DNA from: Escherichia coli O157:H7
GTDB lineage: Bacteria; Pseudomonadota; Gammaproteobacteria; Enterobacterales; Enterobacteriaceae
Reading direction: 5' to 3' (one strand)
DNA: 64,000 nucleotides
Assembly (NCBI RefSeq): GCF_013167455.1
Contig: NZ_CP038328.1
In this document: positions 56,247 through 61,213 of the stretch, one piece after another
Layout of the letters: the number at the start of each line of letters is the position of its first letter
Numbering within the stretch: position 1 is the first letter of the stretch
Program-made: the position numbers and the translations under genes
The notes under the pieces: generated by a model
Told to the model about the DNA's origin: nothing
Databases searched by the model: none
What the model saw: only the letters and a program-made list of their open reading frames with translations

Positions 56247-57005
56247 TTATGCCTGATGTAAAATAGTTAATACTGTGCGCAAATCATTTACCGAGATTTG
56301 CCCTGGCGCAGAGGCTTTTTTTACCGCACCAAAAGTTGCCGCCGAGCCAAATACTTCACCAGCCAGACGAGAAATTACGCCAGTTTTTGCCATTGACATC
56401 GTGATGATTGGACGATCGGCATACTGCTCCTGCATCTCCAGGGTCGCGGCAAGCAACGCCAGCACATCGCTGGTACTTTGCGGCATCAGCGCAATCTTAG
56501 GAATATCGGCGTCGAAGGACTGCATTTTGCGCAGACGGGCAATGATTTCTTCGGCTTCCGGCGTTTTATGGAAGTCATGGTTGGACATGACAACTTTCAC
56601 ATCATGCGCGTGGGCGTAGGCGACGGTTTCTTTAACCTGATCATCGCCGGTAAATAACTCCAGATCGATCATATCAACCAGGCCGCTGTCGATGGCTGCA
56701 CGATTGAGAGCAATATAAGCCTCGGTGGAAATCGCCTGCTCGCCGCCTTCTTTGGCACTGCGGAAGGTAAACAGCAGCGGTTTTTCTGGCATGGTTTCAC
56801 GGAGAATTTTTGCCGCCGCCATGACAGACTCCACATTGGAGAGGTCGGCAAAGTGGTCCACACGCCATTCCAGAATATCAAAGTCCGCTTCACGATAGGC
56901 GAGAGCTTCGGATTTCACTCGGGCGATATCTTTCGCCATCAGCGAGACGATGATTTTAGGTGCGCCCGTACCAATGACGAGATCTTTTACAGTTACGGTT
57001 TTCAT
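56247..57005 (-). CDS. aroD: 3-dehydroquinate dehydratase type I
   Basis: 252-aa ORF. Confidence 0.92.
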
Positions 57006-57035
57006 TTTTTACCCTTTCTGCACGCGGTCAGCCTG

Positions 57036-57902
57036 TCAGGCACCGAACCCCATGACCTGTTTAACATATTCCAGAGGGAAATCTTTGCCAGTCCATAACG
57101 TGAACTGTTCAGCCCCTTGCCACAACAACATGCCGTATCCATCAATCGTTTTGCAACCAGCTTGTTGCGCCTGCTGCAATAACTTCGTCATATGCGGGTT
57201 ATACACGCATTCAGTGACCAGCAGTCCCGGATGTAACAGACTGATATCATTAACCAATGATTTATTCTCAAGGGGTTTCATACCCACTTTTGTGCCATTG
57301 GTTAAAATGTCGGCGGAAGCCAGGGCTTCAGCAAAGGCTTGCTGATCGGCGAGATCGGTAACCGTGACGACACAATCGGTGTTTTCGTTAACCCGCTGCG
57401 CGAAGGCGAGGGCTTTATCGAAGAACTTATCCCGACGGTTAAAGAGTTTAATTTCTTTTAAACCTTCAATTGCCCCCTGCGCGCCAATCGCCGTTGAGGC
57501 ACCTCCGGCCCCTAACAGCACCATTGTTTTGCCTTTGATATCAAAACCGCTCTCTTTAATGGCGCGAATATGGCCCGTGCCGTCGGTGTTATAGCCGCGC
57601 AGGTAGCCATCATCATTAACGATGGTGTTGATGGCACCCACCAGTTTGGCTGCTGGCGTTAATTCATCAACATATTCACACGCCAGTTGTTTGTTCGGCA
57701 TTGATACACCAGTTCCGCGCATTTTTAGAGCTTTTAATCCTTCAATTGCTCCGGGAAAGCTATCGTTATCCACTTCGAAGGCCATATAGGTAAATGGCAA
57801 TCCCGCTTTTTCTAAGGCTTTATTCTGCATTTCAGGCGATAAACTGTGGCGGATAGGATAAGCCATCAACCCAATCAATTCGTATTTTGCGGTAACATCC
57901 AT
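57036..57902 (-). CDS. ydiB: quinate/shikimate 5-dehydrogenase (NAD(P)-dependent, AroE paralog)
   Basis: 288-aa ORF with Rossmann motif (LLGAGGAS). Confidence 0.9.
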
Positions 57903-57913
57903 AATTAACTCCT

Positions 57914-59179
57914 TTAACCTCTATGCTTAATTGTGTTTAACCGGGTGCTAAATTTGCGCTCGCCAAACCGCACATCATTCTCAGGAATAATAAAAACGCG
58001 GTAATAGCGGATAAAAACAATAATTGCGGTAATCAGGGCCAGCAGCGCGAAAGTAAAATCGAGAACAATGATATATTGCAGGCCGATGTTCGACAGATAA
58101 CCGGTAATCAGCGGAATAACAAAGTTAGCCAGTCCACCCATCATCATATAAATACTGGTGACTTTGGCTTTGCTTTTTGGGAAAAACTCTGACATGACCG
58201 AAACACCGAGCTGTAAAATGCCGCCAGCTGCTGAGAAACCGATAACAAAGGCGCCGGCATTACACACCAGTGGAGAAGGGTACAGGTAGATAATGGCTGC
58301 TGTTATTGTTGCCAGTGCAGAGTTAAATACATTAGCCCAGATGGGCCGGACCATTTTTTTCAGTAGTGCGGCAAAAATAAAGACACAGACCAGCGAGCCC
58401 ATACTGTAATAAGAGATGGTTTTTAATGCCTCAGCTTCTGACATACCAGCAAAAGCCATCGCATATTTGGGCATCCACACCACAATCACATAAAAGGTCG
58501 AGAATGCGGCTACACCGAACAGTACCGATGAAACACCTTCCAGCCAGACTAACGGTTTGCTGTTCATTTGCGGTAATTCATTAGCTACGCTGGCGTCCAC
58601 CAACTGGCTGGGGAATTTGCTTTTCAACAGCATCAGCGTGATCAGTACAAACAGAATACCCGGAATAATCAGCCCATAGCCGTACCAGATATTATTGAGC
58701 AACATATAGCTCACCAGCATTGGGTAGAACATTTGCCCAAATGACACCATCGCTTTAACCAGTATGACCGCCGAACCAGAGGCTTTCGGAAAGCATTCCA
58801 TGAGCGCGGGGTAGCCACCCGTATCCAGCGCTGAGTTAGCGATACCTACGCACACTGCCAGACCGTAGGCGAGAGTTAAATTCGGGCAAGCGGGAATACC
58901 AAAGAAGAATAGCAGATACATTATTACTGCCATTAATATCACCGCCCGACGACCAAACTTATCGGAGATCACACCGAAGAATAAAATACTGATCAATCGC
59001 CCCAAACCGATACCGGAAATTAAGTAGGCAATGCCCGCGTTGTCAGTGGAAAACTTTTCCGCCAGAGATGACATATTTTGGGCAAGCGTAATAACACTAA
59101 TGCCGTGCAGGAAGTAGCTGAAGTAAATACAAAGAACAGCCAGGATAAATGGCGTGCTGAAAGCCTTATTTTGAGACAT
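57914..59179 (-). CDS. ydiN: MFS transporter
   Basis: ORF-track frame 57914-59185; second Met ([10 protein letters not shown]) chosen giving 421 aa; 12-TM pattern; paralogous to ydiM. Confidence 0.82.
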
Positions 59180-59405
59180 TTTCACAGCTCCTTGCTGAAA
59201 GATAATTTCGTTACCGTACGTATTGTTCTCCGACGGTTTACATAATTACTATACTGAAGATGATTTTCCCTGGGTACATGGCATAAAGTTTATGTTTCCA
59301 GGAATATTGCATGTCATAGTTTGTTTTTGATCGCGATTTTCCTTAGTTAGCGCAGAAAGAGTTATTTATCCGTAAGATCTTGCATGACCTGAAAAGAATA
59401 TTGCA

Positions 59406-60620
59406 TTACCCACCCGGAGCGACATTTTCCTTTAGCGAGTGATGCCGCGTTTTTTTGCGGCTGCGTAAGCCGATAAACAGTGCCAGTAAAAAACCGATGG
59501 CAGCGATGGCGGTATCGAACCACATAATATCGGCAATACTTCTTTGGGACAGATGAGCCGTAATCAACGGAATAGTAAAGGTCGCAATACTGCCCGCACT
59601 GTAATAGATCCCTGTAGCTTTACCTTTAGCGTAAGGGAAACGTTCAGCCATTAACGTCAGGCCAATTTGCACAACACCTCCAGCAGAAGTAAAACCAATG
59701 ACAAAAGAAAATATTATCACCACATAAAATGTGGGATGCAGGCAGACGGTAAACAGAGCAATAAATGAGATAAAGGTGTACAGCATCAGTAATGTTGTTG
59801 GGCGAACGGTATTACGAATGAGTGGAGCGGTAATAAATACACAAAGCAGCGAACCCACGGTGTAGATACTGAGTAGTTTGATCGACATAGTGTATGACAT
59901 GCCTGCAACAAATTGTCCGTACTGTGCCAGCCACTGGCTAACCAGATAAAACGTTGCCATTGAGATATAGCCATATAAGGTATAACTGGCTAAATCGATA
60001 ATTGAACAGCGATGTTCCGTAGAGCTGGTGGTTTTCTTTATGACAGGTAAGCGACGACCCGGATGGGGTGGGAACGTACAACGGTATAAAAACAGAGCGT
60101 TAATAAACATAATGCCTGCAGCAATCATAAAGGACCAACCGAACCACAGTTCAGCCCACACTAACAGGCTAATGATTAGCGGTAATAAAAATTGTCCGCT
60201 GGAAACAAATGCTTTAATTAAAATATTGGCTGTCCCAGGTGAGCGTGGAAAAGCTTCCATCAAACTGGGATAAGTGCCTGCATCGAGAAAACTGTTTGCC
60301 ATTCCCGCCAGAAAGCCAAAAACATAAGCGATAATGATGTTATTGGTCTGCAGGATGCCAAAAAAGAAGGCCATATAGCAGCACATCCCGAGCATGATAA
60401 AAGGGCGGCGACCAAAGCGATCGGATAATAATCCTGCAAAAAGCAAGACACTTAATCGACCAATGCCCAGCGATGAGATAACTATCGAGACACCCGCGGC
60501 ATTAGACTGCCAAAGTGTCTCCAGCGAGGCCATATTCAGGCTCATCAAAATGACGCCCATACCATGCACCAGGTAATTAAAATACAACCCAAGTGCGGTA
60601 GGGTAATAGGGATTTTTCAT
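59406..60620 (-). CDS. ydiM: MFS transporter
   Basis: 404-aa ORF; N-terminal region similar to ydiN. Confidence 0.82.
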   Translation of the reverse strand: MKNPYYPTALGLYFNYLVHGMGVILMSLNMASLETLWQSNAAGVSIVISSLGIGRLSVLLFAGLLSDRFGRRPFIMLGMCCYMAFFFGILQTNNIIIAYVFGFLAGMANSFLDAGTYPSLMEAFPRSPGTANILIKAFVSSGQFLLPLIISLLVWAELWFGWSFMIAAGIMFINALFLYRCTFPPHPGRRLPVIKKTTSSTEHRCSIIDLASYTLYGYISMATFYLVSQWLAQYGQFVAGMSYTMSIKLLSIYTVGSLLCVFITAPLIRNTVRPTTLLMLYTFISFIALFTVCLHPTFYVVIIFSFVIGFTSAGGVVQIGLTLMAERFPYAKGKATGIYYSAGSIATFTIPLITAHLSQRSIADIMWFDTAIAAIGFLLALFIGLRSRKKTRHHSLKENVAPGG

Positions 60621-60719
60621 AGGTTCTACTTAGCAAAGGTGCTTTAAAAAGTGTAGCGATGTTGTGTCAGTATCCGTTCATTATTGTTGTAACAACGACA
60701 ATTCCTTTTTGTGGAGAAA

Positions 60720-61076
60720 TTAACAAAGCCGCTCCAGATCGTGTGCATATAATTCAGCGGCTACCGATTGATAGATCTTCCAGTCAATAAAATTGCCATC
60801 AGGGTAGACTTGTTGAAACGCGGTTAAGTCGGGGAAAAAACGCATGGTGTTGTTGCCGATGCGGTTATTTATTTTCTCTATGATCGCATGAAGATGTTTT
60901 TTTCTTTGCTGACGCATAGCCAACAGTTGCTCGACTACACAATCAGGAATGGCACACCTGCCATTTTCCCATTGACGCCAGCTTTCACTGTCACCGGTCT
61001 GGGCAATCCAGGTCGCGCATTCATCAATAGTCATGGCAAAAATATGGCGGAGTGCCTGGAGTTCATAAGCGTTCAT
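60720..61076 (-). CDS. ydiL: uncharacterised protein YdiL (DUF1870)
   Basis: ORF-track frame 60720-61103; internal start MNAYELQALRHIFAM giving 118 aa. Confidence 0.72.
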   Translation of the reverse strand: MNAYELQALRHIFAMTIDECATWIAQTGDSESWRQWENGRCAIPDCVVEQLLAMRQQRKKHLHAIIEKINNRIGNNTMRFFPDLTAFQQVYPDGNFIDWKIYQSVAAELYAHDLERLC

Positions 61077-61213
61077 CGTGTAATGGCTGCATGAAATAAA
61101 CAATAAAATATAAATAACATTATCAGCCTGCTGACGGCTTGAAGAGAGTCACAGTATCTTGTGCAACATTATTGGAAAGAGTGAGGGGCGAGGTAGCGAA
61201 GCGGAAAAATGTT

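Follow-up and report, generated by a model that had tools for sequence, protein, structure and literature searches.

On the chromosome of Escherichia coli O157:H7 the genes for a 3-dehydroquinate dehydratase (aroD) and a quinate/shikimate dehydrogenase (ydiB) are preceded by two transporter genes (ydiN and ydiM) and a small gene (ydiL) and are directly followed by acyl-coenzyme A (CoA) and electron-transfer genes reaching from ydiF to fadK. Does this neighbourhood, contained in a stretch of 64,000 nucleotides referred to below as the window, unite the enzymes of one pathway, or are two unrelated sets of genes merely adjacent? An original prediction, made from gene adjacency, had suspected a hydroaromatic pathway here. 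We consider it likely that the hydroaromatic and the CoA modules are functionally linked and that ydiL to fadK (47012-61076) constitute one conserved, normally silent island. The suspected tie is supported by the conservation of the block amid changing flanks, its transfer to Sutterella, the interleaving of both gene sets within operons, the replacement of AroD by a type II dehydroquinase and a shared operator. The best explanation of these findings is that the island does not represent a shikimate-pathway remnant lying by chance beside a fatty-acid β-oxidation cluster. That it accomplishes a CoA-dependent respiration of quinate or shikimate by the specific reductive mechanism set out below is a more tentative proposal, to which we give slightly less than an even chance.

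The genes and their order are ordinary, previously annotated E. coli biology. Coordinates were taken from the RefSeq annotation of an identical genome and from the list of open reading frames (ORFs); several E. coli O157:H7 chromosomes match bases 55000-62000 of the window at 100% identity, and the region, found in 5425 of 5426 complete E. coli genomes, is core to E. coli. Read along the minus strand, the island begins with ydiL (60720-61076), the first gene of the block in Enterobacterales, whose product is a small helix-turn-helix (HTH) protein of the Aca2/YdiL family. There follow ydiM (59406-60620) and ydiN (57914-59179), both encoding transporters of the major facilitator superfamily (MFS), of which YdiN is the one most constantly tied to the cluster, ydiB (57036-57902) for an NAD(P)-dependent quinate/shikimate dehydrogenase, and aroD (56247-57005) for a type I 3-dehydroquinate dehydratase. 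Starting 144 bp 3' of aroD, ydiF (54507-56102) encodes a fused family I CoA-transferase, and next after it ydiO (53342-54493) encodes a CaiA-like acyl-CoA dehydrogenase/reductase. Beyond ydiP (52388-53299), which lies on the plus strand and encodes an AraC-family regulator, the annotation of the minus strand continues with the FixAB-like electron-transfer flavoprotein (ETF) genes ydiQ (51308-52072) and ydiR (50350-51288), with the FixCX-like genes ydiS (49005-50294) and ydiT (48715-49008) for an ETF-quinone oxidoreductase and a ferredoxin-like protein, and with the acyl-CoA ligase gene fadK (47012-48658). The intergenic gaps amount to 99 bp between ydiL and ydiM, 226 bp between ydiM and ydiN, 11 bp between ydiN and ydiB and 30 bp between ydiB and aroD.

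Annotation, ORFs and family models agree that aroD, ydiB, ydiN, ydiM and ydiL share one strand and adjoin the ydiF/ydiO cluster, as had been stated, and YdiM and YdiN are indeed paralogues (36% identity over 385 amino acids, E=4e-85). The span of 56247-61103 originally assigned to the unit contains real genes but halves the unit, as the CoA and ETF genes at 47012-56102 belong to it. Described at the outset as a small uncharacterised gene, ydiL is small, but its product falls into a known HTH family (Pfam PF08965, 206 bits; PDB 1s4k) with Aca2 anti-CRISPR-associated repressors among the PDB matches (E ~1e-14). The longest ORF of ydiL starts with TTG at 61103, the end of that span, instead of the annotated ATG at 61076. 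Likewise, the longest ORFs of ydiN and ydiO start with GTG at 59185 and ATG at 54547 (annotated: ATG at 59179 and 54493, respectively).

Conservation of the island across genomes

A scan seeded on YdiB and restricted to one genome per bacterial species yielded 46 loci, onto which all E. coli proteins were mapped. The 12-gene block in the order ydiL-ydiM-ydiN-ydiB-aroD-ydiF-ydiO-(ydiP)-ydiQRST-fadK is collinear across three families of Enterobacterales, being present in Escherichia, Citrobacter, Kosakonia, Intestinirhabdus, several Yersinia, Dickeya, Brenneria, Prodigiosinella and Symbiopectobacterium. The flanks seen in E. coli (ydiK, ydiJ, menI, suf) are kept only in the first few of these genera; in Yersinia the block adjoins aga phosphotransferase system genes and accommodates a LysR gene between ydiM and ydiN. 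The comparison across genomes by which the original prediction was to be checked thus finds the block collinear in Enterobacteriaceae and beyond while its flanks change. Not all genes of the block are equally constant, ydiN being more so than ydiM and ydiL: ydiM is retained in Enterobacterales and in S. seckii, and ydiL occurs in all Enterobacterales loci and is absent from Sutterella and from the metagenome clusters.

Two species of Sutterella, members of the Betaproteobacteria, harbour both modules complete and rearranged (fadK-ydiT-ydiS-ydiR-ydiQ <> ydiN-ydiB-aroD-ydiF-ydiO), with proteins sharing 51-85% amino acid identity with those of E. coli. About 20 independent contigs from gut metagenomes show this arrangement as well. 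YdiO is 79-89% identical in Sutterella and in L048 and L050, two of the distant loci described below. A Sutterella-like contig of 4 kb (L057) contains, at 1721-3676, a single ORF of 651 amino acids in which the N-terminal part of ydiB runs into ydiF, aroD being deleted. As this ydiB::ydiF junction occurs in a single contig and may be a deletion variant or an assembly artefact, the apparent fusion of shikimate dehydrogenase (SDH) and CoA-transferase (P0055) was left out of the evidence.

The Yersinia LysR gene, annotated in L027 at 7063-7965 (minus strand), specifies a protein 52% identical to the LysR protein beside an aroD-SDH-MFS triad of Oceanobacillus (L045, 5888-6766) and 41% identical to one in the metagenome locus L059 (18828-19682). 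The similar size of their ydiM-ydiN gaps suggests its presence also in Dickeya, Brenneria and Symbiopectobacterium, and E. coli, Citrobacter and Kosakonia lack it. This LysR protein may be an ancestral regulator responsive to hydroaromatic compounds.

A second scan, seeded on YdiF, collected contigs with increasingly distant homologues and was followed by a metagenome scan with a YdiF alignment, most of whose matches were redundant contigs from E. coli, Salmonella and Sutterella and which added only 7 distant loci; orthology was assigned by tblastn. We distinguish type A loci, characterised by acyl-CoA dehydrogenase (ACAD) and ETF genes, from low-GC type B loci, which feature a MaoC hydratase, an ApbA-like reductase and a VOC-fold protein. 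In L048 (70% to YdiF) the gene order is MFS, ydiP(-), ydiN, ydiF, ydiO, ydiQ, ydiR, ydiB, aroD, ydiS, ydiT, so that dehydrogenase and dehydratase sit between the ETF and FixC homologues, and the ydiN orthologue (69%) lies directly upstream of ydiF. L059 (70%) shows the order MFS, ydiF, ydiO, ydiQ, ydiR, aroD, ydiS, ydiT, fadK; YdiN-like MFS genes are located directly upstream of ydiF both here and in L061. L050 (76%) comprises SDH, ydiF, ydiO and an ApbA-like reductase and, further along, SDH and a ydiM-like MFS gene, while L137 (65%) reads aroD, SDH, MFS, ydiF. YdiM-like MFS genes are present in L050, L059 and L137. The low-GC, Firmicutes-type loci L052, L054, L135 and L136 (64-65% to YdiF) combine a YdiF-like transferase, a MaoC hydratase, an ApbA-like reductase and a small VOC-fold protein with a type II dehydroquinase, joined in L136 by SDH. 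L060 (69%) possesses the Firmicutes-type set together with an ACAD, SDH and a QuiC1-type dehydroshikimate dehydratase. The type II dehydroquinase beside these YdiF homologues is not homologous to AroD.

Altogether, SDH and/or dehydroquinase (DHQase) belong to the same gene string in 9 of 14 informative distant loci, and we estimate the chance of finding such a gene in a random genome window of 20 kb at about 1-2%. An accidental adjacency is hard to accept in the face of three findings: the linkage survives transfer and rearrangement, the two gene sets are interleaved in a single operon, and a type II takes the place of a type I dehydroquinase.

Apart from this, type B clusters were encountered in low-GC anaerobes at L052 (10001-14082) and L054 (10001-14011) and in L135, L136, L139, L141 and L060. 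Their VOC-fold protein measures 131-133 amino acids and shows at most a weak match to the glyoxalase/VOC fold, and their reductase is ApbA/PanE-like. The type B cluster could be a fermentative quinate/shikimate pathway. In L055 (Hominifimenecus, 909-13133) an MFS gene, four carboxylesterase/feruloyl-esterase-type genes and a peptidase S15-family gene are placed directly upstream of CoA-transferase-MaoC-ApbA; the esterases are possibly chlorogenate (caffeoyl-quinate) esterases which feed the pathway.

Shared operator and expression of the island

For phylogenetic footprinting the sequences preceding ydiN and those between ydiP and ydiQ were aligned across 10-11 genera. Each of the two regions contains one deeply conserved block, and both blocks represent the same motif with the consensus TTGCAAGATAGTTGGTAACTAAAACA. 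Upstream of ydiN it takes the form of the 26 nt element ATGCAATATTCCTGGAAACATAAACT (59287-59312, minus strand), which is located 108-133 bp before the ATG and whose footprint extends over 11 genera. Upstream of ydiQ it appears as TTGCAAGATTGTTGGCAAGGAAAACA (52174-52199, minus strand), 102-127 bp before the ATG. Both elements accordingly have the same orientation, lie on the gene strand and precede the start codons by about 105 bp. A position weight matrix (PWM) derived from the ydiN sites of 11 genera identifies, when both strands of the window (64 kb) are searched, the ydiQ site as the best non-self match with 19.6 bits, the next match reaching 8.0, and the reverse matrix, derived from ydiQ sites, ranks the ydiN site third in the window. 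In held-out loci (two from Sutterella, L036, L038 and L039) the two top matches per locus of about 20 kb are the ydiN-facing and the ydiQ-facing site. A PWM match at 2358-2383 falls within astD and was treated as chance.

The predicted operator common to both promoters is sequence-level evidence that ydiN-ydiB and ydiQRST-fadK answer to one factor, for which YdiP is an as yet unproven candidate. Close to ydiP itself, direct repeats of the TGCAAGAT type, about 21 bp apart, form the element AAACAAGATT...TGCAAGATTG (52262-52293, minus strand). This element recurs beside the ydiP orthologue of L048 (45%), which is divergent from the ydiN-ydiF operon and has TGCAAGAT repeats alongside. The supplement of the cold-shock paper on YdiP contains no ydi targets. 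Extra first half-sites, ATGCAATATTC and ATGCAAGATC, are present at 59396-59406 and about 59365-59375 (minus strand), at the ydiM-proximal end of the ydiM-ydiN gap, and are conserved in Escherichia, Citrobacter and Intestinirhabdus. The 11-mer ATGCAATATTC shows no overall enrichment in the window, both exact copies being situated within the ydiM-ydiN gap.

Scanning of the intergenic regions for FNR, CRP, ArcA, TyrR and Fur consensus sites gave nothing convincing except a CRP-like site upstream of ydiL. This site (TGTGACTCTCTTCAAG, minus strand, 61138-61153) is conserved, with the closer match TGTGATAATGATCA in Yersinia and Dickeya, and is adjoined by an element, TTGCACAAGATA, that resembles the shared operator. 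A generic promoter/terminator scan of 53000-62800 produced no more sites than shuffled sequence. Between ydiL and the annotated ydiK (61505-62617, minus strand) lies the small RNA RprA (61212-61319, minus strand; Rfam RF00034, 118.5 bits; terminator at 61222-61241), the sole match of the Rfam search, whose sequence is found upstream of ydiL in the Escherichia and Citrobacter loci only. At the opposite end, at 42208-46955 and thus just past fadK, the E. coli island is bordered by further genes connected to the shikimate pathway, namely aroH, encoding 3-deoxy-D-arabino-heptulosonate 7-phosphate (DAHP) synthase, and ppsR/ppsA, encoding phosphoenolpyruvate (PEP) synthase and its regulator; ppsA follows fadK also in E. 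coli- and Citrobacter-like metagenome contigs.

Directly 3' of the aroD stop codon a stem-loop is predicted at 56209-56236 (minus strand; ΔG -16.6 kcal/mol, z -4.1) which lacks a U-tract. A stem-loop at this place recurs in most lineages with unrelated sequences (L002-L046); that of S. wadsworthensis is followed by seven T, and the Citrobacter freundii group has none. It is probably a partial terminator dividing constitutive aroD from ydiF-ydiO. Published RNA sequencing data for aerobic glucose medium, given in the supplement of a paper on chromatin immunoprecipitation with exonuclease treatment (ChIP-exo), list baseMean values of 3 for ydiN, 12 for ydiB, 365 for aroD, 30 for ydiF and 27 for ydiO, and of 8, 23, 31, 1 and 29 for ydiQ, ydiR, ydiS, ydiT and fadK, respectively. 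As aroD is well expressed and the rest is low, aroD is constitutive, in keeping with the demands of biosynthesis, and the remainder of the island is silent under standard conditions. This agrees with the suspicion that the pathway is cryptic or condition-specific.

Might the island nevertheless be composed of two unrelated neighbour modules, ydiN-ydiB-aroD (with or without ydiM) for aromatic amino-acid salvage and ydiFO-ydiQRST-fadK for anaerobic β-oxidation, whose adjacency was simply inherited? Several facts weigh against a common function and the role we assign to the island. Anaerobic fatty-acid β-oxidation is the conventional and consensus function of ydiFO, ydiQRST and fadK (PMC3967523), and a mutant phenotype on fatty acids under anaerobic conditions is attributed there to Campbell et al. 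2003. The MFS-SDH-DHQase triad occurs without CoA genes in the Firmicutes loci L044 and L045 and reportedly, as a stand-alone unit, in Klebsiella (PMC10588857). Klebsiella and Enterobacter seem to have retained only aroD-ydiM-ydiB. The stem-loop separates aroD from ydiF, expression drops between the two, aroD is needed for biosynthesis anyway, and the PWM scan detects no operator copy in the aroD-ydiF gap. Neither SDH nor DHQase accompanies YdiF in 5 of the 14 distant loci (L055, L056, L061, L139 and L141); among type A loci, L059 is devoid of SDH and L050 of DHQase, and since such clusters exist the exact CoA substrate is uncertain. The operator could not be assigned to YdiP, for published ChIP-exo data (aerobic glucose) record five weak sites of this regulator, none of them in the ydi locus, and the Sutterella loci contain the operator with no detectable ydiP. 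Finally, deletion of ydiM is reported to affect bo3 oxidase activity (PMC10588857).

Against two independent modules stands, above all, the persistence of the linkage after transfer across classes and rearrangement in Sutterella. In addition, the ETF and FixC homologues enclose ydiB and aroD in L048 and aroD in L059, a non-orthologous type II DHQase is found beside YdiF homologues, and the ydiN and ydiQ promoters have an operator in common. Moreover, the enzymes that β-oxidation calls for are missing: no enoyl-CoA hydratase, 3-hydroxyacyl-CoA dehydrogenase or thiolase is encoded in the E. coli block or in any type A locus examined, fadIJ being located elsewhere in E. coli according to the literature. 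Hence we regard the coexistence of two unrelated modules as unlikely.

Proposed reductive pathway and its alternatives

The encoded proteins were assigned to families as follows. AroD scores 292 bits with the equivalog model TIGR01093 (cut-off 139) and possesses the Schiff-base lysine K170 and the catalytic H143. YdiB reaches 668 bits with the quinate/shikimate dehydrogenase equivalog NF009390 (cut-off 349) and stays below the cut-off of the AroE model TIGR00507 (192 vs 200); PMC4585142 summarises its dual activity towards quinate and shikimate with NAD or NADP. Matches of YdiM and YdiN to NCBIfam models are weak (e.g. TIGR00895 with 41 and 38 bits vs a cut-off of 419), their homologues match Pfam MFS_1, and both are assigned to TC 2.A.1.15.12/13, within the aromatic acid:H+ symporter family, in PMC10588857. 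Transporter, quinate/shikimate dehydrogenase and dehydroquinase are thus clustered as in the qui, qsu and qa gene clusters. YdiF, for which crystal structures exist (PDB 2ahu/2ahv/2ahw), is a family I enzyme (Pfam CoA_trans) with weak PcaI/J and Ato matches. Its identification as the β-ketoadipate:succinyl-CoA transferase PcaIJ was dismissed in view of scores of 59 and 38 bits (cut-offs 128 and 243) and since pca genes are found in no locus examined. With 787 bits for its own equivalog NF008997 and 452 bits for the CaiA model, below the cut-off of 540, YdiO appears to be a paralogue of CaiA rather than a member of the CaiA family; it also matches cyclohexanecarbonyl-CoA dehydrogenase models, far below their cut-offs, and CarC (PDB 6fah) is among its structural relatives. 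In NCBIfam, YdiQ exceeds the FixA subfamily cut-off (325 vs 219) and YdiS that of FixC (642 vs 610), while YdiR and YdiT are similar to FixB and FixX but score under the cut-offs. The second-best family of FadK is cyclohexanecarboxylate-CoA ligase (419 bits, below cut-off).

As to enzymes of related routes, a tblastn search with the QuiC1-type query from L060 found no dehydroshikimate dehydratase in the 64 kb window, and the search there for type II DHQase, MaoC and ApbA-like genes was likewise negative. According to the annotation a crotonase of the CaiD type is absent from the E. coli block, and its CoA-transferase belongs to family I, not to the CaiB-type family III. Since the window lacks a dehydroshikimate dehydratase, growth on quinate as carbon source is unlikely, and a role as electron sink fits better.

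Apart from the chemistry of its front end, the island has the same components as the carnitine Cai/Fix system. We therefore propose that it reduces quinate or shikimate to hydroshikimate via the CoA ester; the substrates, the direction of the YdiO reaction and the transporter roles given below are inferred. YdiN would import quinate or shikimate, with YdiM possibly acting as a second importer or as a product exporter. YdiB would oxidise quinate to 3-dehydroquinate, AroD would convert the latter to 3-dehydroshikimate, and YdiB would then generate shikimate. The net conversion of quinate to shikimate would be a redox-neutral dehydration, which would explain the dual specificity of YdiB. FadK would prime the cycle and YdiF recycle CoA to yield shikimoyl-CoA (or dehydroshikimoyl-CoA). 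Shikimate is a cyclohex-1-ene-1-carboxylate, which makes shikimoyl-CoA an enoyl-CoA. Its ring double bond would be reduced by YdiO with electrons delivered via the ETF YdiQR and via YdiST as ETF-quinone oxidoreductase and ferredoxin-like protein, whereupon YdiF would release hydroshikimate. Built like the Cai/Fix system, the pathway might serve as an anaerobic electron sink or a form of respiration, presumably under control of the shared TGCAAGAT-type operator.

Circumstantial support comes from the physiology of S. wadsworthensis, which carries the cluster (L041; P0122). According to a preprint (bioRxiv 10.1101/2022.12.26.521950), this organism converts shikimate to hydroshikimate by reducing its enoate and grows better with formate when shikimate is also present. 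The same source supplies two counterarguments to the proposed pathway, namely that Eggerthella lenta reduces shikimate by means of a CoA-independent flavin reductase and that S. wadsworthensis encodes many such flavin reductases. As E. lenta-type reductases are abundant in S. wadsworthensis, its phenotype is not attributable to the cluster.

Rather than stopping at hydroshikimate, a CoA-dependent catabolic or dehydroxylating route might convert (dehydro)shikimoyl-CoA stepwise to cyclohexene- or cyclohexane-carboxyl-CoA or open the ring, with YdiO possibly functioning as an FAD-dependent dehydratase. Such a route would resemble the one leading from shikimate to cyclohexanecarboxyl-CoA in Streptomyces and Alicyclobacillus, and it is in keeping with the second-best family of FadK and the YdiO matches mentioned above. 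The MaoC hydratase, ApbA-like reductase and VOC-fold protein of type B clusters likewise suggest multi-step CoA-ester chemistry. Yet the family matches in question are far under cut-off, the E. coli block provides no hydratase, second reductase or ring-opening enzyme, and hydroshikimate is the sole product reported in a cluster-bearing organism, so that we deem this route rather unlikely.

The reaction could also proceed in the opposite, oxidative direction: reduced alicyclic acids, for instance hydroshikimate made by other bacteria of the gut, would be imported, activated with CoA and oxidised by YdiO, with electrons passing via ETF and YdiS to quinone and (dehydro)shikimate being released for aromatic biosynthesis or respiration. 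YdiO does belong to the acyl-CoA dehydrogenase family, YdiS resembles an ETF-quinone oxidoreductase, which usually works towards quinone, and the above preprint (bioRxiv 10.1101/2022.12.26.521950) mentions the detection of shikimate and related reductase substrates and products in faeces. The nearest characterised paralogous system, CaiA/FixABCX, is reductive, however, S. wadsworthensis uses up shikimate and accumulates hydroshikimate, and the gain in energy or nutrients would be small. An oxidative function therefore seems highly improbable to us.

In a carbon-limited shikimate producer ydiB, aroD and ydiN are co-induced (PMC4585142), and YdiN has already been proposed as a mover of shikimate or its by-products (PMC4585142, PMC8788726). 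The transporters may thus have unrelated or export substrates, YdiN exporting by-products of the shikimate pathway and YdiM exporting isoprenol or moving copper, in which case uptake would be the wrong reading even if the enzymes are linked. Export by YdiN corresponds to the hypothesis of Johansson and Liden as summarised in PMC4585142, and the deletion of ydiN raises the shikimate titre just 1.3-fold (PMC8788726/PMC4585142 literature). In contrast, a YdiN orthologue or YdiN-like MFS gene immediately precedes ydiF in L048 and L059, where the two genes overlap by 4 bp or are only a short distance apart, and one is also upstream in L061, and about 75% of YdiM/YdiN homologues adjoin shikimate-pathway genes in a phylogenomic study of 2023 (PMC10588857). 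Adjacency of MFS genes to ydiF together with shikimate-gene neighbours is a pattern typical of importers in catabolic operons, and we consider export or unrelated substrates very unlikely.

The text of PMC10588857 makes no mention of CoA, ydiF or ydiL, and our searches, confined to open-access literature, found no paper that connects the CoA cluster with hydroaromatics, although one may have appeared earlier in a subscription journal. Within the searchable literature, what is new is accordingly the tie between the hydroaromatic genes and the acyl-CoA cluster, the connection of YdiN, YdiB and AroD with shikimate having been published before.

Implications and comparison with known systems

If the proposal is correct, ydiF, ydiO, ydiQRST and fadK will have to be reassigned from "anaerobic β-oxidation", in an island that is also present in Salmonella, Citrobacter, some Yersinia and gut Sutterella. 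About a dozen y-genes of E. coli would gain a coherent role. Among them is YdiB, and it has been unclear for two decades why E. coli needs this enzyme in addition to AroE. The proposal would also account for the dual specificity of YdiB, a long-standing puzzle, and for the odd place of aroD on the chromosome. Practical consequences would concern engineered reverse β-oxidation, in which ydiO and ydiQRST are widely used, and shikimate-producing strains, whose product the ydi cluster could drain. Quinate, derived from chlorogenic acids, is among the most abundant plant acids reaching the colon. A respiratory sink for it in Enterobacteriaceae and Sutterella would have consequences for our view of how the gut is colonised, of how Enterobacteriaceae bloom there and of how microbes give rise to cyclohexane-carboxylate and hippurate metabolites.

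Among known systems, the quiBCXA-pca genes of Acinetobacter, qsuABCD of Corynebacterium and the fungal qa cluster resemble the island in combining a transporter with a quinate/shikimate dehydrogenase and a dehydroquinase; a LysR regulator is often included, as it is in the Yersinia block. Unlike E. coli, which has CoA-transferase, ACAD and ETF genes instead, they proceed via dehydroshikimate dehydratase to protocatechuate and ring cleavage; L060 is the sole locus in which genes of the qui type and of the CoA type are combined. Reduction of quinate and shikimate by lactobacilli was reportedly described by Whiting and Coggins. The shikimate reductase of E. lenta likewise turns the enoate into hydroshikimate as an electron acceptor in the gut but, according to the preprint (bioRxiv 10.1101/2022.12.26.521950), it is a flavoprotein of the urocanate/fumarate-reductase type which acts on the free acid without CoA.

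Likened here by description, the conversion of shikimate to cyclohexanecarboxyl-CoA in Streptomyces collinus (ans/chc) and Alicyclobacillus is the sole established pathway with a shikimoyl-CoA intermediate. It involves a shikimoyl-CoA synthetase and flavin-dependent CoA-ester chemistry, as stated for a 2020 reference cited in PMC13304725. In contrast to the ydi system, it is biosynthetic, employs enoyl-CoA reductases of the short-chain dehydrogenase/reductase type and comprises no ETF/FixCX proteins, transporter or YdiB/AroD funnel. Another known system is that for caffeate respiration, CarABCDE of Acetobacterium woodii, with CoA-transferase, ligase and a caffeyl-CoA reductase associated with EtfAB, in which an α,β-unsaturated plant acid is activated with CoA and reduced by an ETF-coupled enzyme of the ACAD family. 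It differs by electron bifurcation to ferredoxin and by its aromatic substrate, and it has neither a quinone module of the FixCX type nor the dehydrogenase/dehydratase funnel.

The most extensive likeness exists to the carnitine system caiTABCDE plus fixABCX of E. coli itself. Here, CaiB is a family III CoA-transferase, whereas YdiF belongs to family I; the crotonase CaiD has the CoA ester as its substrate, and AroD, a Schiff-base dehydratase of the aldolase type, the free acid; transport is by a BCCT antiporter, CaiT, in place of an MFS protein; and a betaine takes the place of the hydroaromatic substrate, for which the ydi system additionally requires the dehydrogenase YdiB. Both systems, however, comprise a transporter, a priming ligase (CaiC and FadK, respectively), a cycling CoA-transferase, a dehydratase from whose reaction the enoyl system arises (CaiD and AroD) and an enoyl-CoA reductase of the ACAD family, CaiA representing the nearest named family to YdiO after the latter's own model. 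They also have in common an electron delivery of the FixABCX type and, as we propose for the ydi system, the function of an anaerobic electron sink.

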